A stretch of DNA of 19,342 nt from an uncultured bacterium. GTDB lineage: Bacteria; Patescibacteriota; Saccharimonadia; Saccharimonadales; Saccharimonadaceae. Shown piece by piece: positions 3,113 through 19,342 of this stretch. The translations under genes and the position numbers were made by a program. Position 1 is the first letter of the stretch. Each line of letters starts with the position of its first letter. The stretch covers positions 1 through 19,342 of the forward strand of contig CAIMUU010000049.1 of NCBI GenBank assembly GCA_903844835.1. The letters run 5' to 3'. The notes beneath the pieces were generated by a model. That model had not been told where the DNA came from. It searched no databases and was given only the letters and a program-made list of their open reading frames with translations.

Positions 3113-5263
3113 ATGGGTCAACAAAGACTCAAGAACGTCCAAGGAGACGACCAATCAAGACGACCGAATGTGCCAACCCGGCAGAGGTCAGACAATACCG
3201 TATTAAATAATACGACTATCAAAAGAGGTGAGGCCTACCGGGCTCAACGTCGCACCAGCGAGAATGTAAATATGCGGGCAAGCCAGCATGTTATTAATGT
3301 ACCAGTTAACAAATCAACCTATAACGGCTATGATGGCCGACAATATAGCCCAGTTGATAGTAAAAAACAGCCACGTTTTAACGGCCCAAAATTGCGGATT
3401 ATCCCTATTGGTGGCTTGGGCGAAATGGGCATCGGCAAGAATATGATGGCATTTGAATACGACAATGAAATTATTGTGATTGATTGTGGGCTATTATTCC
3501 CGGGGCCTGACTATCCAGGGATTAATTACATTATTCCTGATATTACATATCTAGAAGAGAACAAACACAAGATTCGAGCAGTGATTTTCACGCACGCCCA
3601 TCTTGACCATATTGGCGCTTGCCGTCATATATTAGAGAAAATTCCTGCACCAGTTTATGCGACCAAGTTTACAATCAATATGATCCAAAAAAACATGGAA
3701 GAGTCGAATGGCGATTATCTGCCACAGTATAATGAGCTGAATCCAGAAAGCCACGACCAAGTTCAGATTGGTGATAATTTCAGAATTGAGTTTGTCAGAG
3801 TTGACCACTCAATACCGGATGCTGCCGCGATTGTTATTCGAACTCCAATTGGAGTTGTCGTCCATACTGGCGACTGGCGTTTCGAAGATGCGCCAATTGA
3901 CGGTAAAAAATTTGATATGGCCAGATTGACTGAGATTGCCAGCAAAGAGGGCATTTTGATGCTACTAAATGAGTCAACTAACTGTGAATCTGATGGCTCA
4001 CATACCCATAACGAACTCGATATTCAAGAGAGTATCGGTCAAGTTATGGACAAATTTACTAACAGTCGAATTATTTTAAGTTGCTTTAGTAGCCACATTC
4101 ATCGCATGCAAGAGATTTTAGAAGAGGCTAAAAAACACGATCGCAAAGTATCATTTGCAGGCTATAGTATGATTCAGAATCTTGAAGTGGCACTGCGCAG
4201 TGGCGTAATCAAAGTTCCAAAAGACGTTGTCGTCAAAATGGAAGACCTCGTTAAATTGCCTGATGGAAAGGTCACGATTGTCTGTACTGGTTCTCAGGGT
4301 GAATTTACGGCTGTCTTGAATCGTATGGCTAGCGGTAGTCATAAATTTATCAAGATTAAAAATTCCGATGTAATTGTCTTTAGCTCGAACCCAATCCCAG
4401 GCAACGAAAAATATGTCACACACACGGTGGACGGCTTGATGCGAGAGGGTAGCGATGTTATCCAAAATAACAAAACTCACCTTACCGGCATAGGGCCATT
4501 ACACCTTTCGGGTCATGCCTATTATGCCGACCACGTTCAGTTAATAACTGCATTGAATCCAAAATACTATTTGCCAATTCACGGTGAGTTTCATATGTTG
4601 GTCCATAGTGCCGAGATTGCCGAAAAGATTGTCGGCATCAAGCGCGAAAATATCTTTGTTTGCGACAATGGTGACATAGTTGAACTAACTAATGATGGTG
4701 CCAGAAAGACCGGCCGAATTACGGTTGGTGGTGTTATGTATGACGACAGCGGCGCAATCGTTTCTGAAGTTGTTCTAAAGGACCGAATTCATATGGCTAC
4801 CGAAGGAATGTTTGTGGTCGTTCTGACTGTTCAGCGGGGTAGTGGACGGCTTATGACTAGCCCAGATATTATCAGTCGTGGTTTTATATACTTACGCGAT
4901 AGTGAGGAGTTAATGGGTACGATTCGCCAGTATCTCAAGCAAAAAGTTGCTAAGAGCTTTTCTGGCAAGCACGTTGATTTGGATGCCGTCAAAAAAGAAC
5001 TCAAAGACGAAATCACGCATATTTTGTATGACCAAACTAGGCGCACACCGATTGTTATTCCAGTAATCAATGAGATTGGTGGAAATAACAATATCAGTGG
5101 AGTCAATGCTCCGAATACTCGCACTCATCAACCTCAAGACAAACCAAGACAAAGCAGTAGTCAGTTTATTGCACCTGTTAAACCAGTCACTTTTCAATTG
5201 CCACAAGTGCCAGACTCTGAAGCAACCGAGCCACGTGGGCGAATTGATTACCGCGGTTATTAG
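3113..5263 (+). CDS. rnj: Ribonuclease J (metallo-beta-lactamase / beta-CASP RNase) with long N- and C-terminal low-complexity extensions
   Basis: Diagnostic motifs are LRIIPIGGLGEMGKNM, the HxHxDH motif FTHAHLDHIG, HTGDWRF, GSQGE and HLSGHA. I prefer the ATG at 3113 (SD aaggaga at 3100-3106) over the TTG at 3092 used by the ORF track. Confidence 0.92.
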   Translation: MGQQRLKNVQGDDQSRRPNVPTRQRSDNTVLNNTTIKRGEAYRAQRRTSENVNMRASQHVINVPVNKSTYNGYDGRQYSPVDSKKQPRFNGPKLRIIPIGGLGEMGIGKNMMAFEYDNEIIVIDCGLLFPGPDYPGINYIIPDITYLEENKHKIRAVIFTHAHLDHIGACRHILEKIPAPVYATKFTINMIQKNMEESNGDYLPQYNELNPESHDQVQIGDNFRIEFVRVDHSIPDAAAIVIRTPIGVVVHTGDWRFEDAPIDGKKFDMARLTEIASKEGILMLLNESTNCESDGSHTHNELDIQESIGQVMDKFTNSRIILSCFSSHIHRMQEILEEAKKHDRKVSFAGYSMIQNLEVALRSGVIKVPKDVVVKMEDLVKLPDGKVTIVCTGSQGEFTAVLNRMASGSHKFIKIKNSDVIVFSSNPIPGNEKYVTHTVDGLMREGSDVIQNNKTHLTGIGPLHLSGHAYYADHVQLITALNPKYYLPIHGEFHMLVHSAEIAEKIVGIKRENIFVCDNGDIVELTNDGARKTGRITVGGVMYDDSGAIVSEVVLKDRIHMATEGMFVVVLTVQRGSGRLMTSPDIISRGFIYLRDSEELMGTIRQYLKQKVAKSFSGKHVDLDAVKKELKDEITHILYDQTRRTPIVIPVINEIGGNNNISGVNAPNTRTHQPQDKPRQSSSQFIAPVKPVTFQLPQVPDSEATEPRGRIDYRGY

Positions 5264-5365: not shown

Positions 5366-7627
5366 ATGACAAAAAGAAAAAAACACCACAAAAATAAAGG
5401 GCTGAACAAACCGGCTGTAAAGCATAGTTTGCCTATTGGTTTTTGGTCGCAGATTGGTGCTGTGTTTTTGCTGGCTGTCTCTGTATTATTTGTCGTTGCG
5501 TGGTTTAATGCTGGTGGGCCAGTTCTAGAATGGCTACATATGGCGACTATCGCCACTATTGGCTATTCGATGTATGTCGTACCGGTATTGTTTGTCTATG
5601 TTGCAATTGAAATTTTTAGAGCCGAAGACAATCGTCTGCCGTTTGCGATGAAACTTTCAACCGCTTCGGCTATACTGTGGTTTTCGTCATTATTTGGCTT
5701 ACTCAAAAATGACAGTGGCCAAACAACCGGTGGCTTTGTCGGTGACATAATCAATAAAGGCGTGTTAGCTTTGGTTAATTCTAGTGTTGCCGCCTTTATC
5801 TATATATTATTTATTGTAATTACTTTGTTGTTCATTTTGCGCGTATCACCACTATCAATTATCAAGAAAATCTGGGAACTGAGTCGTCGCGACACGGCTG
5901 AACACGATGCTAATGTCAAAGTCATGCGTAATGTTGCTGCACTTGATTCGACCAAGATGAATATTGGTAATTTCAAGCTTAACGCGGGCGTACCAACACT
6001 GGATCAAGATTCAATTGATGCCGACAAAAGGCAGTTGAAGCGCTCTGGCCCATCAGGTAGCTTTGGAAGGGATAGGGTCGCCGAAGACCAAACTGCACTT
6101 GTGACCGTTAGAGACCCAAATTGGGAAGCGCCTAGTCTCGATTTACTAGAGAAAAAACAATCTCCAGCTGATGCAGGTGATATCAAACAGAACGCTGCCA
6201 TAATTAAGAACACGCTAAATGAATTTGATATTGATGTCGAGATGGAAGGTGCAAATATCGGTCCACGCGTGACGCAGTTTACACTTCGTCCCCCAAGTGG
6301 TGTTAAGTTAACTCGCATTACCGCTCTTGAAACAAACATTGCACTTAATCTAGCGGCCCAGAGCTTGCGTATTGAAGCGCCGATTCCAGGCAAGAGTGTA
6401 GTTGGTATTGAAGTGCCTAATCGTCGTGCCGCTGATGTGCGTATTTATTCAGTGCTGTCTAGTCCTAAATGGGATGCGAATACCGAGCCGTTAGCGTTTG
6501 CGATTGGCAAGGACATTGCCGGCGACTCAATTGTCGGCGAGCTCAACAAGATGCCCCATCTATTGATCGCCGGCCAAACTGGTTCGGGTAAATCTGTTAT
6601 GATTAACACTCTTCTGATTAGCTTACTATACCGTAACAGCCCAAGTGAGATGCGACTGATTCTGGTTGACCCAAAACGAGTTGAAATGGCTCAGTACCAG
6701 GATATTCCACATCTATTGACGCCAATTATTACTGAACCAGACAAGACGATTAGTGCACTCAAATGGGCCGTCAACGAGATGGAAAGACGCTATCATTTAT
6801 TGGCTGAGAGTAAAGTCAAAGACATTAAATCTTATAATCAAAAAATGCAATCTACTGGCAATCGCATTACTGTAGCCGATGAATACGGCATTCCTCAAGA
6901 ACACGAAAATGGCGCGATGCCATATATCGTAATTGTGGTTGATGAGTTGGCCGACCTTATGATGGCAGCGGCGCGCGATGTTGAAGCTTTGATTGTTAGA
7001 TTGGCTCAAAAGGCTAGGGCAGTAGGTATTCACTTGGTGCTAGCGACGCAAAGTCCAAGAGCGGACATTATTACCGGTCTAATCAAGGCAAACATATCGG
7101 CTCGTATTGCCTTTACGGTCGCCTCACAACTTGATAGCCGAATCATCTTGGACCAGGGTGGGGCCGAGAAGTTGCTTGGTCAAGGCGATATGTTGTATGT
7201 CACCGCCAGCATGAGCAAGCCAAAACGTATTCAAGGCGCGTGGGTAACTGACGAAGAAATGACAAAAGTGACTAACCATTTGCACATGCAAGCTCCGCCA
7301 CAGTACAACGATGAAGTTGTCAGCCAACCAGTCCATCTTAATGGCAAGGGTGGCGTTGTTATGGACTTTGACACAAGTAACGAAGACGATATGTATAAAG
7401 ACGCTGTTCGCGTAGTGATTGAGGCAAACAAGGCTAGTGCTAGCTTGTTACAGCGTCGCTTGCGCGTAGGCTATGCTAGGGCAGCTCGTTTGATTGAAAA
7501 TATGGAAGATCAAGGCATTATTGGCCCAGCTGATGGCGCAAGGTCCCGTGAAGTGCTTATATCGAGTGTTGATGAACTTGGCGGCAGTAGCATTAATGGC
7601 TCGTCTGATGATGATTTTGCTGAATAG
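5366..7627 (+). CDS. ftsK: DNA translocase FtsK/SpoIIIE
   Basis: 753 aa. The N-terminus has multiple hydrophobic helices, followed by a linker and a motor domain with Walker A (GQTGSGKS) and Walker B (YIVIVVDELADL). The C-terminal gamma winged-helix reads LLQRRLRVGYARAARLIENMEDQGIIGP. Confidence 0.94.
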   Translation: MTKRKKHHKNKGLNKPAVKHSLPIGFWSQIGAVFLLAVSVLFVVAWFNAGGPVLEWLHMATIATIGYSMYVVPVLFVYVAIEIFRAEDNRLPFAMKLSTASAILWFSSLFGLLKNDSGQTTGGFVGDIINKGVLALVNSSVAAFIYILFIVITLLFILRVSPLSIIKKIWELSRRDTAEHDANVKVMRNVAALDSTKMNIGNFKLNAGVPTLDQDSIDADKRQLKRSGPSGSFGRDRVAEDQTALVTVRDPNWEAPSLDLLEKKQSPADAGDIKQNAAIIKNTLNEFDIDVEMEGANIGPRVTQFTLRPPSGVKLTRITALETNIALNLAAQSLRIEAPIPGKSVVGIEVPNRRAADVRIYSVLSSPKWDANTEPLAFAIGKDIAGDSIVGELNKMPHLLIAGQTGSGKSVMINTLLISLLYRNSPSEMRLILVDPKRVEMAQYQDIPHLLTPIITEPDKTISALKWAVNEMERRYHLLAESKVKDIKSYNQKMQSTGNRITVADEYGIPQEHENGAMPYIVIVVDELADLMMAAARDVEALIVRLAQKARAVGIHLVLATQSPRADIITGLIKANISARIAFTVASQLDSRIILDQGGAEKLLGQGDMLYVTASMSKPKRIQGAWVTDEEMTKVTNHLHMQAPPQYNDEVVSQPVHLNGKGGVVMDFDTSNEDDMYKDAVRVVIEANKASASLLQRRLRVGYARAARLIENMEDQGIIGPADGARSREVLISSVDELGGSSINGSSDDDFAE

Positions 7628-7701: not shown

Positions 7702-8688
7702 ATGCTCAGTATCTACCCTAAAAGATTAAAACATCTTAAGGTTATCAATAAAGGTTTTACGATTGTAGAGTTGCTAGTCGTAATAGTAATTATTGGCATT
7801 CTGGCAGCTATAACTATAGTCAGCTATCGCGGAGTATCTCAACGCGCTAAAATTTCATCTATGCAATTTGATTTGTCTAATGCTTCAAGGCAGTTAAAAC
7901 TATTTCAAGTAGCTAGCCCAACGAACGATTATCCAACCGCAAACAATTGCTCAGCCCCTATTGCGACTGAAATTTGTCTAAAATCTAGTCGTGGTAATAC
8001 CTATACATATACACCTAATAATGCATCTAACCCTAAGACCTTTACGCTAACTGCGACTAATGGTACGACAGTCTATTCTGTAACTGATGTCACATCACCA
8101 ACCGCAGTAGTGTCATTAGCTATCTCTGACCCAGCTAACTGGTTACAGGTCGGCACTCAAGTATGGGCTAAATATAACCTGAATGTCGGCACTATGGTTA
8201 TTGGCGTAACTGACCAAACTAACAACTCAGTAATCGAGAAGTACTGCTACGACGACACTGAGAGCAACTGTACGACCTACGGTGCCATCTATCAATGGAG
8301 TGAAGCTATGCAATATGCTACGACAGCTGGTGCTCAAGGCATTTGCCCAGTTGGCTCACATATTCCAACCGATGCTGAATGGAAAACACTCGAAATGCAA
8401 TTGGGTATGACTCAGGTTCAAGCTGACGCTACCGACTTCCGTGGCACCAACCAGGCATATCAACTAATACCTGGCGGTAGTTCGGGGCTAAACATCCCAC
8501 TTGCCGGCGTCCGCAACTACTATGACGGTTCGTTTGGTGGCGATCTGTTGGTGGACGTCTACTTGTGGTCTAGTTCTGGGTCTGGTAGTAATGCCTGGGG
8601 TCGCGGCTTTAGCGATATTAGTGGACTTGTGGATAGGATTTGGACCGACAAAGCTTACGGCTTTTCGGTTCGTTGCGTCGGAAATTGA
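7702..8688 (+). CDS. Type IV pilin / pseudopilin with a C-terminal FISUMP (Fibrobacter succinogenes major paralogous) domain
   Basis: 328 aa; SD aaggaaag at 7690-7697. The class III signal is MLSIYPKRLKHLKVINKG|FTIVELLVVIVIIGILAAI, with Glu at +5 after the predicted cleavage. A Cys83..Cys92 pair is present. From about aa 147 (nt 8140) the FISUMP hallmarks appear: VWAKYNLNVG, CYDD..C..YGAIYQWSEA, CPVGSHIPTDAEWKTLE, LPLAGVRNYYDGSFGG, YLWSSS, AYGFSVRCV. Confidence 0.88.
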   Translation: MLSIYPKRLKHLKVINKGFTIVELLVVIVIIGILAAITIVSYRGVSQRAKISSMQFDLSNASRQLKLFQVASPTNDYPTANNCSAPIATEICLKSSRGNTYTYTPNNASNPKTFTLTATNGTTVYSVTDVTSPTAVVSLAISDPANWLQVGTQVWAKYNLNVGTMVIGVTDQTNNSVIEKYCYDDTESNCTTYGAIYQWSEAMQYATTAGAQGICPVGSHIPTDAEWKTLEMQLGMTQVQADATDFRGTNQAYQLIPGGSSGLNIPLAGVRNYYDGSFGGDLLVDVYLWSSSGSGSNAWGRGFSDISGLVDRIWTDKAYGFSVRCVGN

Positions 8689-8706
8689 TTTGACCACTTT
8701 GATTAT

Positions 8707-8721: not shown

Positions 8722-8757
8722 AAGCCAGAACCATTTGTCGCTAGTGTAATATTAGTC

Positions 8758-8844
8758 GCCAGATCACGCAAAGTGCTGATATCGAGTGTCGATGGATTGT
8801 CTGGCGGTACCAGCAGCTCTGATCTTTGTGACGAAGACCTCTAG
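8758..8844 (+). pseudogene. Ghost copy of the ftsK 3' end (start-less fragment, diverged from 7538-7627)
   Basis: In-frame reading gives ARSRKVLISSVDGLSGGTSSSDLCDEDL*. The true FtsK C-terminus is ARSREVLISSVDELGGSSINGSSDDDFAE*. The nucleotide core gtgctgatatcgagtgtcgatg matches gtgcttatatcgagtgttgatg at 20 of 22 positions. The ORF track reports no ORF covering it. Confidence 0.6.
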
Positions 8845-8940: not shown

Positions 8941-9291
8941 ATGAAAGAATACGAACTAACAGTTCTAATTCATCCCGACCTAGAGGTCGACATCGAGACG
9001 CCACTTAAAAAAGTGCGCGGCCTAATTACATCTGCCGGTGGCAGTATTGTAAGTGAGGACAATTGGGGCAAGAAACGTTTAGCATATCGAATCAAAAACG
9101 AGGACTTCGCAGTCTACGTTTATTTTGATATCAATTTGCCATCCGACGCGCCTCTCAAGATTAGTAATGCGCTAAATATCTCAGACGAAGTATTACGCTA
9201 TTTATTGGTTGCGGTTGATTTGAAGGGTCGTAAGGCTCTTGAAGAAGCAAAAGCAAATGAGTTAACTAGAGACGCAAATCGAAAGGACTAA
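8941..9291 (+). CDS. rpsF: 30S ribosomal protein S6
   Basis: 116 aa with a strong SD. MKEYELTVLIHPDLE...WGKKRLAYRIKNEDFAVYVYF is typical of S6, and the gene sits in the canonical rpsF-ssb-rpsR order. Confidence 0.94.
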   Translation: MKEYELTVLIHPDLEVDIETPLKKVRGLITSAGGSIVSEDNWGKKRLAYRIKNEDFAVYVYFDINLPSDAPLKISNALNISDEVLRYLLVAVDLKGRKALEEAKANELTRDANRKD

Positions 9292-9296
9292 AACCT

Positions 9297-9737
9297 ATGT
9301 CAAAAAGTATTAACCAAGTAATTTTGATGGGACGCCTAACACGTGACCCAGAGCAACGAACAACTAGCACCGGTAAGGTGATTGTGAGTTTTAGTATTGC
9401 CGTTGACCGCTTTGGTCAAGACGATACAGCTGATTTTTTCAATGTTACAGCATGGGAAAAACTAGGCGAATTGGTAATGCAATATCTAGGTAAGGGCCGA
9501 AAAGTTCTAGTTCAGGGCCGTTTGCGACAAGATAGTTGGGACGACAAAGAGACTGGTAAAAAGCGCAGTAGTATCGAAGTAACAGCGACTGACGTGACAT
9601 TTTTGGACGGTCCAAATGACAAGGTTAGCGACAAGCAACCAAGCGAAAAGCCAAAAAGTTCAAGCAAAAAAACTGATGACGTCGTGATTGAAGATATTGA
9701 CGACAAACCTATTGATTTAAGTGAGATTCCTTTTTAG
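9297..9737 (+). CDS. ssb: Single-stranded DNA-binding protein
   Basis: 146 aa. The OB fold reads NQVILMGRLTRDPEQRTTSTGKVIVSFSIAVDR...FFNVTAWEKLGE...GRKVLVQGRLRQDSW. A disordered acidic tail ends in DLSEIPF. Confidence 0.94.
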   Translation: MSKSINQVILMGRLTRDPEQRTTSTGKVIVSFSIAVDRFGQDDTADFFNVTAWEKLGELVMQYLGKGRKVLVQGRLRQDSWDDKETGKKRSSIEVTATDVTFLDGPNDKVSDKQPSEKPKSSSKKTDDVVIEDIDDKPIDLSEIPF

Positions 9738-12603: not shown

Positions 12604-12760
12604 ATCAACATCATACAGAAACAGGGGAGATATTAAAAGCTCCAGAGGTTTATCGAAGTCTTTTATGTCTATTTTTTGATAGAGCTAGTTTCGCTGACTT
12701 TACTGCTGTTCAAACTGCATGATACTTATGTTATTATATAAGCAAATAGACAGGAGACTT

Positions 12761-13243
12761 ATGATTAAAAGGTTGGTATTTGTAGGTATAGCAGTAGCGA
12801 TATTAGCGCTTCTTAGTGGAGGAGTGTGGTGGTTATTCAGTAGTGGTCATTTAATATATTCTGCCTCGGGCCAATCGTCGACAACTGTTTGTAATGCAGA
12901 CATTGTTAACACATATAATGCTGCTATGTATTATCAGCCACGCAATGATGCGACCGAGTCTAGTATTGACCAGCAGGGGGTTAAGGATTTGGTGTCTGAA
13001 ATAAGGACCAAGTCAAATTTCGATGGCGACCCAACTTGCCAGACAATTATTTTTTGGTCGGCTGTTTTGGACGATAATTATAGTGAGGCTCGTACTGCCT
13101 ATGATGCAATAATGAATTTATATGAAAAGCGTGTTTTTGCTGACTCAAATTTAAGAAGCGATCAAGCACTTTTCACTTATGAGCAGGTTATGAACGGCTT
13201 GACGGTTTCGGGTATCATTGAGGATGGTATGTTTGGTGGATAA
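12761..13243 (+). CDS. Hypothetical membrane-anchored protein (N-terminal TM helix plus an extracytoplasmic, probably helical, domain)
   Basis: I prefer the ATG at 12761 (SD aggag at 12752-12756) over the track start at 12719. MIKRLVFVGIAVAILALLSGGVWWLF is a signal anchor. I recognise no family. The stop lies 1 nt before the ATG of the next gene. Confidence 0.55.
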   Translation: MIKRLVFVGIAVAILALLSGGVWWLFSSGHLIYSASGQSSTTVCNADIVNTYNAAMYYQPRNDATESSIDQQGVKDLVSEIRTKSNFDGDPTCQTIIFWSAVLDDNYSEARTAYDAIMNLYEKRVFADSNLRSDQALFTYEQVMNGLTVSGIIEDGMFGG

Positions 13244-13244
13244 T

Positions 13245-15749
13245 ATGCCAAAGTTACAAATAAGCCCCATCTTGCGACAAAATTTATTTACATCAAGCCT
13301 ATTATTGTTCGCTGTAATTTTGTCATTTGTTTTTGCCACACTCTTCCGCCAGCCGGTTTATGCTGATGGAGCTATTGGTGATGGCGGCCAACCCGGTAAT
13401 AGTTGTTCAGGAAATTATGCCTGTACCTCCAACGGCTGGGGATGGTATAGCTATCCGACAACTGGCACAATTAGGCCAAAATATTTTTCTAACGGCACCT
13501 CATGGAGTTCAGTGAGCGCTACATGCTCTAGTAAAGGGGCAGATCGAGTGGTGGCATTAATTATTCTTGAGGGTCCCGGCAAGACAGAACCGGACATTAA
13601 TAAAAAGGCCAACTGGGGCGTAGTTTATGATTATGTAGGCTGGTCTGATTATGTAACCCTTTATAATGGCAATTTAGGAACATATTGGCTCAAGACATCA
13701 GACGCCAAATCTAAATATGATTTTATGGAAGTAGCAAAACTTGGTTATACCTGGGGCGTTAATGTCGGTTGGTTTTGCTATTCTACAAGCCCCGCCTGGA
13801 CACTTAGTGCGACTACTACTAACAATAAGCCGTCGGGGACAGCTATGGAGGGCGAGACCATCCTTTGGACCAATAAGATAGTTAACAATGGCATTGGCAT
13901 AACGACCCACAACGTAAATAGCCAAATTGCTTTAACTAATTTTACTTCCGGGTTTTGGGGGGCGTCATCATTAGTCGCTGACGGCAACACGTCAGCCGGA
14001 GTGGCGGCAAGTGGTGTGAGTGGTTATTTGAGGGTCATAAGGTACACGAACGACAATTTTAATTCACCGCCAGATTACTCTACTTATGTTGCTCAGAAAG
14101 TCGATGTTGGCAAAACATTGTGTCAAAAAGTTCGATTTAATCACAAAGCGGGCGCTGCCGATCTTACTTACAGTTATGGAAATGATTCTTGTGTAACTAT
14201 TGTTAGCCCTTGGTCAATTACAGTTACCAGTTCCGCCAATGTTGTAACCGCCAAACCTGGGTCAGTCATCACTTGGACGCACACAGCAACTAATGCTGGT
14301 GCTAATTCGACAAATAAAGATGTTATTGTTACTCCTAGTGCTGGCAGTGGGAGTGGTACTTTGCTGTCTGGCTCTGTGCCTGGTGCTAAAAAGGCTATCA
14401 ATTCTACGTATACGGTGCTAACTAGTGATTCAGGTAGTACCTTGTGCCGTGCAACAGTCGCAACACCTCAAGCATGGGATAAAATAACTTCTATCACATC
14501 GACGCCAGCTTGCGTCACTATCCCACTCGACTATAACTTGGTCCCAGGCGTATCGCTCAACCCATCTGGGGTAATTGAGGCTGGGTCATCTTTTGAAGTT
14601 GCTACATCAATTAACAATTCTGGGACTACAGACAATAACCCAACAGCCACTTGGACTTTAGTTAGAACTCTATCTCAACCTGGTTTTGCCGATGTTGTTA
14701 CTAGCCAAACTGGCAATGGTCTATTGGTCCCTGCAAAAAGTTCCGTTGCTCCAATCGCCACCTTCGTTGATAATAGTACTGAAAAATTGGTTGGCACCCG
14801 CATTTGCTATGTCTTGACGGTCCAGCCATATTCAAGTATTGTGGCCGGTTCAACTAGTTCGGCGCCAGTTTGCGTAACTCTTGGCAAGAGGCCGAAGGCG
14901 CAAATATGGGGCGGTGATCTTTGGGCTGGTGGTAAAGTTCAGACCAGCCTGTCATCGAAGGGCGGCATTATGTTCGGCAGTTGGGACGAATATGGTATCT
15001 TCTCGGCAGGCGTAATTGATGGCATGGCATCTGGCTCTGCATTCTCGGGTTCTGGTCTTGCAGGTGTTACCTCGTCTTGTGACTATAGCTATCTAAGTTT
15101 TTCAAATGCACCAACTGGGCTAAGTAGTTGTAGTGGTTTGGCGGGGACAATCGGTAGCTATGCAGGGATACGAACTTCCCTAGATGTGGCATCTAGTTTT
15201 CCGGGCGGCACAGCTATTGCTGCTGGTGCGACAATTGATCCTAGCAGTTTAGCTGGTGGCACATATGTTGTTGCTGGCGATTTGACACTTAATGCCAGCA
15301 CTTTGCCCGCCAGCAAGTCAATTATAATAAAAGCTTCGGGTACAGTGACTATTAATGGCAACCAAGCATACTTTGGCGGTCCATTTGGCAGTGCTAGCCA
15401 GTTGCCACAGTTAATTATTACTGCAGATATTATTAACATTGCCGAAAGTGTAACAAATATTGATGCTTGGTTGGTTGCAAAAACCAGCATAAATACTTGC
15501 GCTTCAGTTGCAGTAGGCGCATCACTAACTTCCAGTATGTGTGATCAAAAGCTAGTCGTTAATGGCCCAGTTATGACAGACAAATTGTATTTGCGCCGAA
15601 CGGCCGGCTCTAACTCTGGCATTCAAAGTGGTGACCCGGCTGAAATATTCAATCTTCGACCAGATGCTTATCTTTGGGCAACTATGCGGGCCCAGTCTAC
15701 TGGGCGAGTCCAGACGGTCTATGTTACAGAATTACCACCAAGGTTTTGA
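13245..15749 (+). CDS. Large secreted/surface protein with three tandem CARDB/DUF11-like beta-sandwich modules and a Gly/Ser/Ala-rich C-terminal domain (putative adhesin)
   Basis: I prefer the ATG at 13245 (834 aa), which starts 1 nt after the upstream stop. The signal peptide is MPKLQISPILRQNLFTSSLLLFAVILSFVFATLFRQPVYA|DG. Three modules share a G-x-[IF]-x-[WV]-x(4,6)-N-x-G strand (GETILWTNKIVNNG, GSVITWTHTATNAG, GSSFEVATSINNSG) and a paired-Cys ending (TLC..18..CVTI; TLC..21..CVTI; RIC..21..CVTL). The sequence is rich in T, S, G and N. Confidence 0.7.
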   Translation: MPKLQISPILRQNLFTSSLLLFAVILSFVFATLFRQPVYADGAIGDGGQPGNSCSGNYACTSNGWGWYSYPTTGTIRPKYFSNGTSWSSVSATCSSKGADRVVALIILEGPGKTEPDINKKANWGVVYDYVGWSDYVTLYNGNLGTYWLKTSDAKSKYDFMEVAKLGYTWGVNVGWFCYSTSPAWTLSATTTNNKPSGTAMEGETILWTNKIVNNGIGITTHNVNSQIALTNFTSGFWGASSLVADGNTSAGVAASGVSGYLRVIRYTNDNFNSPPDYSTYVAQKVDVGKTLCQKVRFNHKAGAADLTYSYGNDSCVTIVSPWSITVTSSANVVTAKPGSVITWTHTATNAGANSTNKDVIVTPSAGSGSGTLLSGSVPGAKKAINSTYTVLTSDSGSTLCRATVATPQAWDKITSITSTPACVTIPLDYNLVPGVSLNPSGVIEAGSSFEVATSINNSGTTDNNPTATWTLVRTLSQPGFADVVTSQTGNGLLVPAKSSVAPIATFVDNSTEKLVGTRICYVLTVQPYSSIVAGSTSSAPVCVTLGKRPKAQIWGGDLWAGGKVQTSLSSKGGIMFGSWDEYGIFSAGVIDGMASGSAFSGSGLAGVTSSCDYSYLSFSNAPTGLSSCSGLAGTIGSYAGIRTSLDVASSFPGGTAIAAGATIDPSSLAGGTYVVAGDLTLNASTLPASKSIIIKASGTVTINGNQAYFGGPFGSASQLPQLIITADIINIAESVTNIDAWLVAKTSINTCASVAVGASLTSSMCDQKLVVNGPVMTDKLYLRRTAGSNSGIQSGDPAEIFNLRPDAYLWATMRAQSTGRVQTVYVTELPPRF

Positions 15750-15803: not shown

Positions 15804-16853
15804 ATGGCATTACTAAAAGGATTGGGTGACTTTTTTGCATTAGACATCGGTACGACCGCTGTTAGGGTGGTGCAACTTTCCCAATCTGGTTCAAATAGCT
15901 GGAATTTACAGCACTATGGCTATGCGCCGGTCGACGAGCGTATTACCAGCAGTAACACTGCAGAGGGCTTGCGTCGTCTCGGTGAGGTAATTATGACTGC
16001 GGTTGGCCAAAGTGGGATTAAAGCAAAGAATGTTGCTATTGGTTTGCCATCGAGCAAAACCTTTACAACGATTATTGATGTCCCGATGGTTAGCGAGGCT
16101 GAGTTAAAGAGCACAATTAAGTATCAAATTGACCAGTATATTCCGATGGCAATTAATGAAACAAAAGTTGACTGGGCACTTCTTGGCCAGTCGCTCCACG
16201 ACCCAAAACAGCAAGAGGTGCTTCTGGCCAGTACGGCCAACGCTTATGCCGAAGAGCGTCTTGAATTTATTGAAAGTCTTGGCTTTAACGTTATTGCCGC
16301 CGAGCCTGACCCAATTGCTATTGTTCGATCTTTGTTGCCAGTTGATGTGCGTGATGCTAGGTTGATAATTGATGTCGGCGAGCGGGCGACTGATTTGGCG
16401 ATTACTTTTGGTGATACGCCACGTCTTGTGCGAAATATCCCAATCGGTCTAGGCTCATTGATTAAAGTTGCAGTTCAGAATCTTAATGTCCAGGAAGACC
16501 AGGCAAGACAATTCATCTTGAAGTTTGGTTTGGCCCCAGATAGACTTGAGGGTCAGGTCTATCGTTCTATCGAAAGTACGCTAGAGAATTTTGCATCAGA
16601 ACTTATCAAATCGATAAAATTTTTCCAAACTCGTTATCCGAACACTCCAGTTGGCGGCATTCTACTGTCTGGTTTTTCGGCTGTGGTTCCAAAGTTTGGT
16701 GAATATATTACCGCAAAAACTGGGGTTCCTTCTTCGATTGCAAATCCTTGGCAGAGAGTTCACGTTGCTCAAGCCGACCAACAGCAATTGAGCTCAATTG
16801 CTGCTGAGTTTGCTACCGCAATTGGGCTCGCCGAAAGGAAAAACCTAAAATGA
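15804..16853 (+). CDS. pilM: Type IV pilus assembly protein PilM (actin-like ATPase fold)
   Basis: 349 aa. Motifs: FALDIGTTAVRVVQL, PSSKTFTTIIDVPMVSEAELKSTIKYQIDQYIPM, VIAAEPDPIAIVRSL, IIDVGERATDLAI. The stop overlaps the next start (ATGA). Confidence 0.87.
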   Translation: MALLKGLGDFFALDIGTTAVRVVQLSQSGSNSWNLQHYGYAPVDERITSSNTAEGLRRLGEVIMTAVGQSGIKAKNVAIGLPSSKTFTTIIDVPMVSEAELKSTIKYQIDQYIPMAINETKVDWALLGQSLHDPKQQEVLLASTANAYAEERLEFIESLGFNVIAAEPDPIAIVRSLLPVDVRDARLIIDVGERATDLAITFGDTPRLVRNIPIGLGSLIKVAVQNLNVQEDQARQFILKFGLAPDRLEGQVYRSIESTLENFASELIKSIKFFQTRYPNTPVGGILLSGFSAVVPKFGEYITAKTGVPSSIANPWQRVHVAQADQQQLSSIAAEFATAIGLAERKNLK

Positions 16854-17578
16854 TAGAAATCAATCTTGTACCAGACATAAAACAAGAATTATTACGAGCT
16901 CAGATTATTAGGGCTAGGGTTATCTTTGGATCTGTCGCAATTGGTATCGTCTCAGTGGCCGTTGTTATCCTATTGGTAATTTACGTCTTTACTTTTCAGA
17001 CGGTTCGTAGCGGCCTAGCGGACGCCTCAATCGAACAGGGTAGTGACAAGCTTGCCGCCGTTACTGATTTAACAAAAACTTTGACGATTCAAAATCAACT
17101 GACTAAAATATCTGTTTTAAATAGTGATAAAAAAATTGATTCACGTATTTTTGATGTTCTAAATGCAATTATTCCGCCAAGTCCAAATAACATCCAAATA
17201 TCTAATCTGGCTATTAATTCTAGTTTAGAATTGATAACAATTGATGGCCAGGCCGCTAATAGCTATGCCGCAGTTGAGATTTTCAAAAAGACTATCGAAG
17301 GTGCGGTGCTAAGGTATACCGACTTAAATGATGCACCTCAGGAAGTGCCTCTAGCATCTGACATTAGTACTAGTAACACTAGTTATGGCGAAGACACTAC
17401 GGGCGCAAAAGTGTTGCGATTTACTCTGAGTTTTGTTTACGCGCCAGAATTATTCTCTCCAGCATCAAAGGGGGTGTCGGTAGCGATAACCATTGATGGC
17501 AATGTAACTGACTCATATTTGGGAGTTCCGAAAAGCATTTTTGCTGATCGTGCAACAGACATAACGGGGGTTAACTGA
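16850..17578 (+). CDS. pilN: PilN-like type IV pilus assembly protein (bitopic membrane protein)
   Basis: 242 aa. The N-terminus MIEINLVPDIKQELLRAQIIRARV followed by a single TM helix (IFGSVAIGIVSVAVVILLVIYVF) is the PilN pattern. The position directly after pilM also fits. Confidence 0.65.
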   Translation: MIEINLVPDIKQELLRAQIIRARVIFGSVAIGIVSVAVVILLVIYVFTFQTVRSGLADASIEQGSDKLAAVTDLTKTLTIQNQLTKISVLNSDKKIDSRIFDVLNAIIPPSPNNIQISNLAINSSLELITIDGQAANSYAAVEIFKKTIEGAVLRYTDLNDAPQEVPLASDISTSNTSYGEDTTGAKVLRFTLSFVYAPELFSPASKGVSVAITIDGNVTDSYLGVPKSIFADRATDITGVN

Positions 17579-17579
17579 T

Positions 17580-18266
17580 ATGCAACCAAAAAATGTAGCG
17601 ATTCGTAAGCGAACGCAGATAATGAAAGCAAACCGAACGATGTTTATTTGGGTTGCCGGCGTGTCGGTTGTGTTCGGTGTTGCATTAGTCGGCATAATAT
17701 TTTTGACCCAGATGCTGCTCTTTAACGAAAGGGTTTTACAGCAAAAAAATCTAACAATTTCTACTCTAGCTACAAATAACAGCAACATATCGGCTCTAGA
17801 GTCGCAGGTTAGAGTACTTGATACTAACGAGGCTTTGATTAGCTCAAAGGCAAAGCCCGATGACCAGGCTATCCAGGTAATTCTTGATGCCCTGCCATCT
17901 GATGCGAATTCGCTAGCATTAGGTGCTTCTTTGCAGACAAAGCTTTTGAGTGGAATCCCTAATTTGTCATTGAATTCAATACAGGTTGATCCAGTTGTTG
18001 GTGTTGAGTCACTAAGCTCTAGTTCGGTTGTTAGCGCTTTACCGGTTTCGACATCAGAGAACAATATTACTTTCCGTTTTTCAGTTACTGGTAGCGACGC
18101 CAGTCTTAGGCAAGTATTGCAGAACCTCGAAAGTTCAATACGTACAATTGATATAATATCTCTCAAGATTGAGAGCCAGGGATCGGTTCGGGTATTGAGC
18201 GTAGAAGCTCAGGCATTTTATGAACCAGCTAGGGTAGTACAGCTAAAAGATATGGTGGTTAAATAA
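17580..18266 (+). CDS. pilO: PilO-like type IV pilus assembly protein (bitopic membrane protein)
   Basis: 228 aa with one TM helix (MFIWVAGVSVVFGVALVGIIFL), a coiled-coil-like segment and a C-terminal alpha/beta region (ITFRFSVTGSDASLRQVLQNLESSIRTIDIISLKIES). The call rests on gene order and architecture, not a strong motif. Confidence 0.55.
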   Translation: MQPKNVAIRKRTQIMKANRTMFIWVAGVSVVFGVALVGIIFLTQMLLFNERVLQQKNLTISTLATNNSNISALESQVRVLDTNEALISSKAKPDDQAIQVILDALPSDANSLALGASLQTKLLSGIPNLSLNSIQVDPVVGVESLSSSSVVSALPVSTSENNITFRFSVTGSDASLRQVLQNLESSIRTIDIISLKIESQGSVRVLSVEAQAFYEPARVVQLKDMVVK

Positions 18267-18487
18267 TGAAAAAAACTGATATTGCGATGATTTTGCTTAT
18301 TGCTTCGGCGAGTGTGGTTATCTCCTTCTTTGTAGCTCAGAGTATTTTTGGAGATGTTTATCAGGGCACAGCTAAAGTAAAGACGATTGATAAAATAGAC
18401 TCTACGATTGTTGAACCCAGCTCTGATATTTTTAATATAAATGCCATAAACCCAGCTGTCCAAGTTGAGATTACTGGGACAAAATAA
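18266..18487 (+). CDS. Small single-pass membrane protein, fourth gene of the pilMNO block (function unknown)
   Basis: 73 aa. MKKTDIAMILLIASASVVISFFVAQSIF is an N-terminal TM helix. The start overlaps the pilO-like stop (TAATG). Confidence 0.5.
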   Translation: MKKTDIAMILLIASASVVISFFVAQSIFGDVYQGTAKVKTIDKIDSTIVEPSSDIFNINAINPAVQVEITGTK

Positions 18488-18502
18488 AAGGTGGTGTAGC
18501 CA

Positions 18503-19342
18503 ATGGCACTTCTGACTGCTGACATTCAGGGAAAGCTAGTGAACCTTCTTGTGAGTGAGGGGCTTGTTAGTAGCGACGTGATAAATGAGGCTAAAATAAC
18601 TTCATCAAAAACGAGTCAGCCTTTATTTGAATTATTAACAGAAAAAAACATTGTTGATGATGAACTATTGACGCATGCTACCGCCCAGGTTTCGGGTGTG
18701 CCATATGTTAACTTGTTAAATAGCGTTATTGATCAGAGTATTTTGGGCTTATTGCCCGAAGACATCGCCGCTCGGTTTATGGCCGTGCCTCTTGCCGAGG
18801 TGCAAAACCGACTTGCTGTTGCTATGATTGACGCTAATAATGTCCAGGCGGTTGACTATCTTGCAAGTCGTATCGAGCGACCACTCAAGGTCTTTATGGC
18901 CTCTGAGGCGGGCGTGCGTCACGTATTAGACCAATACAAGACAGACTTTTCGAGTGTTAATGTGGCGGCCGAGGTAAGTCAGGCAGAAGCCAGCCAAGAG
19001 TCGAATCGTGATGTAAAGACAATTGTGCAGGATTCGCCAATTAGCAAGGCGCTTAGTACCATTCTTGAATACGCCTTAAAATCGCGCGCTAGCGATGTTC
19101 ATATCGAGCCACTTGAAAATTCTCTAAAGATTCGCTGTCGAGTTGACGGTATGTTGCATGAGATAATGCAGCTACCAAAGAGTATTGAACCAGCACTTGT
19201 CAGCCGAATAAAGATTCTATCCAATCTAAAAATTGATGAGCATCGAATGCCACAAGACGGCCAATTTACCGTAAAAATAGCCAACAAGGAAGTTGATTTG
19301 CGTATTGCCATCAGTCCGGTTATTTGGGGCGAGCAGGTAGTG
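18503..19342 (+). CDS. pilB: Type IV pilus assembly ATPase PilB (GspE family), N-terminal 280 codons; the gene continues past the right edge
   Basis: My own translation from the ATG at 18503 (SD aaaggtgg at 18487-94) is open to the window end. A T2SSE_N-like region (LLTHATAQVSGVPYVNLLNSVIDQSILGLLPEDIAARFMAVPLA) is followed by ASDVHIEPLENSLKIRCRVDGMLHEI and SRIKILSNLKIDEHRMPQDGQF...DLRIAISPVIWGEQVV. It is absent from the ORF track because no stop occurs in the window. Confidence 0.9.
   Translation, partial: MALLTADIQGKLVNLLVSEGLVSSDVINEAKITSSKTSQPLFELLTEKNIVDDELLTHATAQVSGVPYVNLLNSVIDQSILGLLPEDIAARFMAVPLAEVQNRLAVAMIDANNVQAVDYLASRIERPLKVFMASEAGVRHVLDQYKTDFSSVNVAAEVSQAEASQESNRDVKTIVQDSPISKALSTILEYALKSRASDVHIEPLENSLKIRCRVDGMLHEIMQLPKSIEPALVSRIKILSNLKIDEHRMPQDGQFTVKIANKEVDLRIAISPVIWGEQVV

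Follow-up and report, generated by a model that had tools for sequence, protein, structure and literature searches.

Between ftsK and rpsF of an uncultured Saccharimonadaceae bacterium lies a gene whose product joins a type IV pilin to a FISUMP domain, and the question that it raises is what such a protein may display and how its exposed surface has been shaped. The gene occupies positions 7702–8688 of the window, i.e., the whole 19,342-nucleotide (nt) stretch of contig CAIMUU010000049.1 (GCA_903844835.1) analyzed here. The initial annotation described a pilin–FISUMP fusion, and this part of it stands, well above anything chance would give, but it overlooked a C-terminal hypervariable region of 63 amino acids (aa), of the type associated with diversity-generating retroelements (DGRs). 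The protein is probably best explained as a bimodular minor (tip) pilin with a DGR-shaped ligand-binding surface, this copy being a fixed variant. The gene is divided as follows.

7702–8688, plus strand: bimodular prepilin gene (pilin module and FISUMP domain), 328 aa; open reading frame (ORF) with Pfam and NCBIfam matches above cut-off
7702–7755, plus strand: class III (prepilin) leader, aa 1–18, ending in Gly−1; from the sequence, with Gly or Ala at −1 in 118/120 homologues
7756–7914, plus strand: alpha-1 helix of the mature pilin, aa 19–71, with F+1 and E+5; model helix 21–71 and profile matches, the most conserved part of the family
7915–8136, plus strand: small pilin head, aa 72–145, with Cys83–Cys92, plus linker; model strands 100–106, 113–120 and 123–128
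8137–8496, plus strand: conserved FISUMP core, aa 146–265; PF09603/TIGR02145, mean column entropy below 1 bit
8497–8688, plus strand: DGR-type variable region (VR), aa 266–328 and stop, 3′ end GGAAATTGA; entropy, residue usage, codon test and alignments with template repeats (TRs)
8689–8702, plus strand: conserved post-stop element TTTGACCACTTTGA (motif TTTGACCNCTTTGA); exact matches only at stop+1 of family genes

Two modules and a hypervariable end

The gene starts with ATG, with AAGGA 7 nt upstream, and encodes the leader MLSIYPKRLKHLKVINKG followed by FTIVELLVVIVIIGILAA, the junction being KG and then FTIVELLVVIVIIGILAA, with Phe at +1 and Glu at +5. The prepilin N-terminus proposed in the initial annotation, with its 18-aa leader ending in KG and its Glu+5, is borne out by matches above cut-off to N_methyl (PF07963; E=2e-6, 27.6 bits against 21.2, aa 16–38) and to the NCBIfam prepilin motif TIGR02532 (E=1.5e-7). 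Leader length in homologues ranges from 4 to 61 aa, and the motif [G/A]-F-T-[I/L]-[I/V]-E is present in 118 of the 120 best homologues (G in 92 and A in 26), the remaining two being a near-variant, GFTVVE, and an N-terminally truncated sequence. The PilA, GspG, and ComGC models of NCBIfam show weaker, sub-threshold similarity to the N-terminal helix only, and a weak match to ComP_DUS (E=0.025, below cut-off) was not taken as evidence of DNA binding. In an alignment of 40 homologues, F19, E23, C83, and C92 are invariant, and the Cys83–Cys92 pair pointed out earlier is thereby upheld. Moreover, the family profile matches solved type IVa pilins, including Geobacter PilA (E=4.5e-14), and its matches to Thermus PilA4 and PilA5 span the whole pilin module. 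The helix, the beta-sheet head, and the invariant Cys pair of a pilin fold are all present according to the AlphaFold model and the profiles.

The FISUMP assignment of the C-terminal part also holds, with both N_methyl and Fib_succ_major scoring above cut-off as had been expected. Fib_succ_major (PF09603) matches aa 149–326 with E=2.5e-25 (90.3 bits against a cut-off of 33.9) and covers 185 of its 187 profile positions (2–186), and TIGR02145 matches with E=1e-22 (81.7 bits against 41.65); the FISUMP cysteines C182, C190, C215, and C325 are invariant in the 40 homologues. The initial annotation had asked whether the FISUMP lobe replaces the pilin head or extends it. The AlphaFold model, with a predicted local distance difference test (pLDDT) score of 85, contains a helix at 21–71, a three-strand head at 100–128, a short linker, and a separate domain from about residue 147, so the lobe is predicted to be appended, after the linker, to a small but complete pilin module. 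Modelled alone, the domain reaches a pLDDT of 89 and a predicted template modelling score (pTM) of 0.87. Comparison of the C-terminal half with solved proteins by sequence profile gave no match; among predicted viral structures (BFVD), Foldseek retrieved phage FISUMP domains (E=4.3e-10) and DUF1566 (E=0.019).

Among 109 full-length homologues, the FISUMP core (about aa 147–269) is highly conserved, and the final 50–60 residues alternate between scaffold and hypervariable positions. The last 63 codons (8497–8685) hold 14 hypervariable codons between the invariant scaffold residues G269, R271, F278, W289-SSS, AW299, R301, R312, K317, G320, and SVRC; the columns with an entropy above 3 bits are 270, 272, 280, 281, 285, 287, 300, 302, 304, 307, 311, 313, 315, and 316. 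The residues found at these 14 columns are almost only those that NNY codons (Y, pyrimidine) encode, and K, E, Q, M, and W together make up 3.4% there versus 12–15% at other variable columns. In 26 family genes, 86% of the hypervariable codons are NNY, with C as third base in 49%. The bias extends to four-fold codons, which end in Y in 85% of cases at hypervariable columns versus 65% elsewhere (Fisher p=5.5e-5), and the window gene has NNY at each of its 14 hypervariable codons, compared with 63% across the remainder of the domain (p=0.002), both p-values being optimistic because the sequences are related. DGR template codons are typically AAC or AAT. Judged by this sequence pattern, C-terminal columns restricted to NNY are the mutational footprint of DGRs, and the window gene carries it, 13 of its 14 hypervariable positions mapping to AAY codons of a template from a close homologue.

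Retroelement cassettes and variation in the family

Second copies of the 3′ end of each family gene were looked for in its own locus. At locus L014, which encodes a 415-aa prepilin–FISUMP protein 64% identical to the window protein, a 172-nt repeat lies 620 nt downstream, with all mismatches at adenines of the downstream copy, and a bAvd gene (E=4.7e-17) and a reverse transcriptase (RT) gene (RVT_1, E=8.6e-18) are situated between and after the repeats. Homologues of the L014 RT form a Saccharibacteria clade, which led to further cassettes with the order target, bAvd, TR, and RT, one at L170/L172, whose target, P0032, is 60% identical to the window protein, and another at L173–L175, from HGW-Saccharibacteria-1. 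There are four homologues linked to a DGR RT, all with the canonical prepilin motif and about 60–65% identical to the window protein where measured. The cassette order was seen directly in three of them; the link of the fourth, P0107, is indirect and comes only from its RT, P0122, lying on a contig of equal size (40,103 bp). In the three cassettes with a TR, the mismatches at template adenines number 16/16, 20/21, and 14–15 of 15–16, and in every cassette found the target is immediately upstream of bAvd. At the level of the family, the last 63 codons are targeted by DGRs.

The templates encode ...GNRNTDGSFNNLSSNTNLWSSS...AWNRNLNSGNATVNRNTNDKGNGFSVRCLEN, and the AAY codons of the L014 template correspond to window positions 270, 272, 280, 281, 285, 287, 300, 302, 304, 307, 311, 313, 315, and 319, covering 13 of the 14 independently defined hypervariable columns. 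The column entropy of the family is 0.9, 1.9, and 2.9 bits for template codons with none, one, and two adenines in the first two positions, respectively, and codons with a single adenine show the restricted sets expected of them, D/G/V/A at position 316 from GAC and T/A/S/P at position 314 from ACG. These features bear on the idea that the C-terminal variability arose from ordinary diversifying selection and paralogue recombination, with the DGR cassettes as a side branch. It could draw on the scarcity of cassettes, since of the 15 family genes followed by 2.4 kb of DNA or more, 14 lack one and L014 alone has it, and on P0006 and P0023, whose near-identical pilin modules are joined to different FISUMP domains, which suggests recombination. 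However, ordinary selection is a very improbable source in view of the third-position bias that persists even in four-fold codons, the coincidence of template AAY codons with hypervariable columns, and the restricted sets at single-adenine codons.

In other phyla (Moranbacteria, Nomurabacteria, Bacteroidota, and Ignavibacteriota), DGR-linked FISUMP targets are carried on membrane-anchor or Sec/lipoprotein N-termini, not on pilins. In three of the four DGR-linked pilins (L014, 5453–6700; L173, 3754–5139; and P0107), the pilin module is separated from the FISUMP domain by an insert of some 100 additional aa of repeat-like sequence, with the pattern ITAIA..TG....LTAG..TP..AT..YQWQ.ATT.GGTY..I.GAT..TY and weak matches to Ig-domain Pfam models; the window protein has no such insert.

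Variation between samples was counted within clusters at 90% identity, with aa 266–328 delimited in window numbering. In the RT-linked P0107, three variants differ at 20 positions, all 20 within this segment, and the ten-member cluster of the L014 gene has 20 of its 34 variable columns there, as does the unlinked P0007 with 26 of 28. At the HGW-type DGR locus, two samples (L173 and L175, about 5062–5063) differ only at one template AAC codon, with ACC in one and GTC in the other, and the copy from an NCBI metagenome-assembled genome (MAG), L174, has a run of Ns across the variable region from about 5083, as expected if hypervariation breaks the assembly. The VR is constant in the clusters of several other family members. 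The orphan clusters P0001, P0003, P0034, P0036, and P0058 have one sequence each, seen on 3–9 contigs, P0001 being without variants on 4 contigs. The variation of DGR-linked copies is ongoing in nature.

The window copy and its locus

A low-stringency search of the 19-kb window found no second copy of 8440–8688 and no template repeat, and the VR/TR pair present at L014, L170/L172, and L173/L175 has no counterpart at the window gene. RVT_1 and bAvd are absent from the listed window ORFs of at least 90 aa (short overlapping antisense ORFs were not scanned), and DNA free of template or RT extends 7.7 kb upstream and 10.7 kb downstream of the gene. The templates of the three related cassettes were ruled out as donors of the window VR, with 63–68% identity and many non-adenine mismatches. 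With neither template nor RT in the window, no donor among the known templates, and no variants in the database, the window copy is read as DGR-shaped but fixed; among several dispersed paralogues, it most likely represents one specificity that has been fixed ('archived').

The main alternative, since the rest of the genome is unseen, is that the same protein is a live remote target, whose segment 8497–8688 is rewritten in trans by a DGR elsewhere in the genome, giving many pilin specificities per population. This possibility, which is unlikely, is in keeping with the VR-type 3′ end of the window gene, GGAAATTGA, where all three templates have GAAAATTGA, with its 14 NNY codons, with the existence of an RT clade specific to Saccharibacteria, and with a visible genome of only 19 kb. 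It is also in keeping with the retained post-stop TTTGAC element shared with DGR-linked copies. Across the 175 loci searched, TTTGACCNCTTTGA occurs right after the stop of family genes and nowhere else, with further examples at L004 9021–9034, L090 2047–2060, L094 880–893, L099 7423–7436, and L108 2942–2955, and DGR-linked copies have two to three related TTTGAC repeats after the VR, upstream of bAvd; the element could be a DGR cis element, a cassette promoter, or a 3′ UTR (untranslated region) signal. Nevertheless, P0001 is invariant on its 4 contigs, other orphans are invariant on 7–9 contigs while the DGR-linked copies vary, and the target adjoins bAvd in all cassettes found. No sign of remote targeting was obtained in HGW-Saccharibacteria-1, where the template matches the adjacent target only and mismatches three paralogues on other contigs. 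Beyond the fixed variant, a two-tier specificity of the pilus tip may tentatively be proposed, in which one DGR cassette would keep generating FISUMP–pilin surfaces and successful variants would be copied to, or kept at, dispersed orphan sites, or would still be rewritten there in trans.

The surroundings of the gene agree with the earlier description, which had placed it alone between ftsK and rpsF and about 7 kb from pilMNO–pilB.

5366–7627: ftsK, upstream neighbour of the pilin gene
8752–8844, plus strand: ftsK 3′-end relic, LVARSRKVLISSVDGLSGGTSSSDLCDEDL followed by a stop, a diverged in-frame copy of 7537–7627
8941–9291: rpsF, downstream neighbour of the pilin gene
9297–9737: ssb, after rpsF
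15804–19342, plus strand: type IV pilus machinery cluster; pilM by Pfam, the others by size, position, or eye

Pfam matches of ORFs of at least 90 aa identify pnp, a UDG-family gene, RNase J, and ftsK upstream, and rpsF, ssb, efp, a TlyA-like methyltransferase gene, and ychF downstream. In the machinery cluster, pilM (15804–16853; PilM_2, E=1.3e-40) is followed by two membrane proteins, likened to PilN/PilO solely for their size and position, then by a small membrane ORF and the 5′ portion of a pilB-like gene, recognized by eye from its translation, which runs off the window from 18503. Directly upstream of pilM, an 843-aa protein (13218–15749) with an N-terminal membrane anchor is preceded by a 174-aa membrane-anchored protein (12719–13243); neither has a Pfam match, and both may be uncharacterized pilus-associated or surface proteins. 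No other prepilin-like gene was noticed in the window among Pfam matches of ORFs of at least 90 aa or in the translations of 12.6–19.3 kb, although no systematic motif scan was made. Promoter and terminator scans around the pilin gene performed no better than on shuffled sequences, and Rfam and tRNA scans of the window gave no match.

The relic of the ftsK 3′ end, located between the pilin gene and rpsF, includes a 56-nt direct repeat with 73% identity to 7537–7592 at a spacing of 1220, keeps the reading frame and the acidic tail, and leaves the pilin gene bracketed by two ftsK ends 1220 nt apart. Its sequence suggests the footprint of a past tandem duplication or allele replacement at the locus. 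A recent insertion at ftsK/rpsF is rendered less plausible by L011 (8000–10779, from an uncultured Candidatus Saccharimonas MAG), which has the same order of ftsK, pilin–FISUMP gene, rpsF, and ssb. The relic is absent from L011. The flanking proteins of L011 are 77–81% identical to those of the window and the pilin 60%, and the pilin thus evolves much faster than its neighbours. Flanking direct repeats were rejected as a general insertion signature of orphans, being seen only at the window and at L003 (49 and 37 nt, 92–94% identity); at L090 and L092 the repeats come from family genes in tandem, and flanking repeats are absent from the remaining orphan loci.

The window protein has more than 4,759 relatives in the database, the best 120 being 48–68% identical, mostly near full length, and nearly all with both Pfam domains; the Joint Genome Institute (JGI) names relatives 'TIGR02145 family / prepilin-type N-terminal cleavage/methylation domain'. 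In species-representative genomes, the survey of relatives called for at the outset finds the same fusion, at full length, in MAGs of Candidatus Saccharibacteria or Saccharimonas, which carry several copies apiece, and on one 578-kb contig three paralogues occupy three unrelated sites. Wherever its context was inspected, the gene stands as a lone insert amid housekeeping genes, in settings such as tilS/ftsH, spoU/hisS, gmrSD/nusA, topA, and def/greA. Prepilin–FISUMP fusions with 32–34% identity and near full length also occur at L024 and L038, in MAGs labelled Gammaproteobacteria, and at L039 ('bacterium'), and from the Gammaproteobacteria labels the architecture is not confined to the Candidate Phyla Radiation (CPR), unless these contigs are mis-binned. 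The entry IPR011871 is presumably that of FISUMP. In a published listing of modular-pilin architectures, the combination IPR012902–IPR011871 ranked fifth in abundance, with 40 proteins of unknown function (Raynaud et al. 2021, PMC8179133). Given this listing, the number of relatives, and the lone-insert contexts, both the fusion and its lone encoding are ordinary for the phylum; thus, the architecture first described is real but neither unusual nor isolated, and being encoded alone, although true of the window gene, is the norm across the family rather than a distinctive trait. Next to the orphan paralogue P0036, L176 (6110–7186) encodes a 358-aa Laminin_G_3 (PF13385) protein, which may be a second modular pilin, as no other extra module is so common in modular pilins as PF13385 (Raynaud et al., PMC8179133).

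Proposed function and known systems

In the proposed mechanism, prepilin peptidase would remove the 18-aa leader by cleaving after Gly18, and the N-terminal helix and small head would allow incorporation of the subunit into a type IV pilus assembled by the PilM/N/O/B machinery encoded nearby, the tip being a likely position in view of the bulk of the subunit. Placement at the tip is suggested by two analogies, one being modular pilins (PMC8179133) and the other the minor pilins of TM7x, which are large and lectin-like (PMC11623550). The appended FISUMP domain would be a cysteine-stabilized ligand-binding module of the DUF1566/Fib_succ_major 'CLec2' class of DGR targets. In the family, the RT copies the template repeat with errors at adenines and writes the copy into the VR, whereby some 14 surface codons are randomized from template AAY to NNY. 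By analogy with DGR variable proteins (PMC5758913), the variable face may bind a ligand, probably a glycan or protein on the surface of the bacterium that hosts the episymbiont. The architecture is most reasonably read as a binding head displayed on a fibre, a reading that matches the modular-pilin concept (PMC8179133).

The prepilin signal could instead serve export or anchoring only, making the product a cell-surface or short-pseudopilus protein like the archaeal 'bindosome' class III sugar-binding proteins. This reading can draw on the distance of the gene from the machinery (7 kb) and its lack of linkage to other pilins, on the size of the mature protein, which at about 310 aa is large, and on the membrane anchors or lipoprotein signals of DGR-targeted FISUMP proteins in other phyla, which imply that a fibre is not essential for the domain to work. 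However, what is conserved is not the signal alone but a full pilin module of helix, beta-sheet head, and invariant disulphide, with an invariant Glu+5; Streptococcus sanguinis incorporates modular pilins of comparable size into its pili (PMC8179133), and large minor pilins function in TM7x pili (PMC11623550). A role restricted to export or anchoring is improbable.

Several points weigh against a tip pilin with a DGR-shaped and now fixed binding surface, beginning with the optimistic p-values of the codon test. Binding sites rich in Tyr, Asn, Asp, Ser, and Gly can also arise by ordinary selection, and 26–36 of 148 nt of the window VR differ from the three known templates at non-adenine positions. 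The evidence for a 'frozen' state comes from few assemblies and from clusters built at 90% identity. Foldseek searches of the PDB with the whole model and with the domain-only model retrieved nothing significant, the top of the list being C-type-lectin-like proteins with non-significant E-values of 0.2–2 (domain-only best E at least 0.23), and with no significant match to a solved structure the assignment of a lectin fold rests on the literature (PMC5758913). Finally, PilD cleavage and presence in a pilus are predictions from sequence, and the window contains neither pilD nor a major pilin gene.

The founding DGR target, Mtd of Bordetella phage BPP-1, is a fibre-tip receptor-binding protein whose C-terminus contains about a dozen variable codons templated by AAY; it differs from the window protein in being a trimeric phage tail-fibre protein of CLec1 type whose cassette is always adjacent. 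DGRs are abundant in CPR genomes. FISUMP was already known as a DGR target (PMC5758913, PMC11661182), and the CLec2 variable proteins (DUF1566/DUF823/Fib_succ_major), such as Legionella LdtA, resemble the window family in having a C-terminal VR in a FISUMP/DUF1566-type domain, adenine-specific diversification from a template, bAvd and RT accessory genes, and a surface-exposed protein (PMC5758913). However, LdtA and most CLec2 members are lipoproteins or Sec-exported, whereas the carrier in the window family is a type IV pilin, and the window copy, unlike the LdtA group, has no adjacent cassette.

Modular pilins are adhesins, e.g., PilB of S. sanguinis with a vWA module and PilC with a lectin module (PMC8179133). 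Both share with the window protein an N-terminal pilin module, a short linker, and a bulky C-terminal binding module, and for both, as for the window protein, tip display and an adhesin role are proposed (PMC8179133); the graft of the window protein is FISUMP, not vWA or ConA-like, and hypermutation of the binding surface by a retroelement, as in the window family, is not described for these pilins. Saccharibacteria bind their hosts through type IV pili and lectin-like minor pilins, and PilX2 of Nanosynbacter lyticus TM7x is needed for efficient host binding (PMC11623550). PilX1 and PilX2 are likewise type IV pilins with large C-terminal lectin-like domains, but they have beta-jelly-roll and beta-propeller folds, are encoded inside pilus loci, and have no reported hypervariation; FISUMP is not mentioned in that work (PMC11623550). 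In the literature searched, no description of DGR-diversified type IV pilins and no link between Saccharibacteria pili and DGRs was found, the main CPR DGR paper (Paul et al. 2017), which may mention pilin-type targets, being outside the search; the nearest precedent mentions only in passing a 'GspG-type pilin' domain that overlaps a VR. The window gene therefore belongs to two known kinds, modular type IV pilins and the CLec2 class of DGR target domains. At the level of the family, the pilin–DGR link appears to be a novelty within known kinds, and the window gene itself is an ordinary, apparently static member.

This pilin–DGR family bears on how ultrasmall CPR episymbionts recognize and switch bacterial hosts, host binding in cultured Saccharibacteria being known to require type IV pili. 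A ligand-binding face rewritten by DGRs on pilus subunits would be a concrete and testable host-recognition molecule whose residues can be named, namely those of the 14 codons in 8497–8685. Moreover, the varying DGR-linked copies and the invariant orphan copies offer a way to ask how DGR products become fixed. If the two-tier system were true, each episymbiont would hold a small archive of host-recognition heads, the window gene being one of them, and the system would represent a retroelement-driven analogue of pilin antigenic variation aimed at bacterial hosts.

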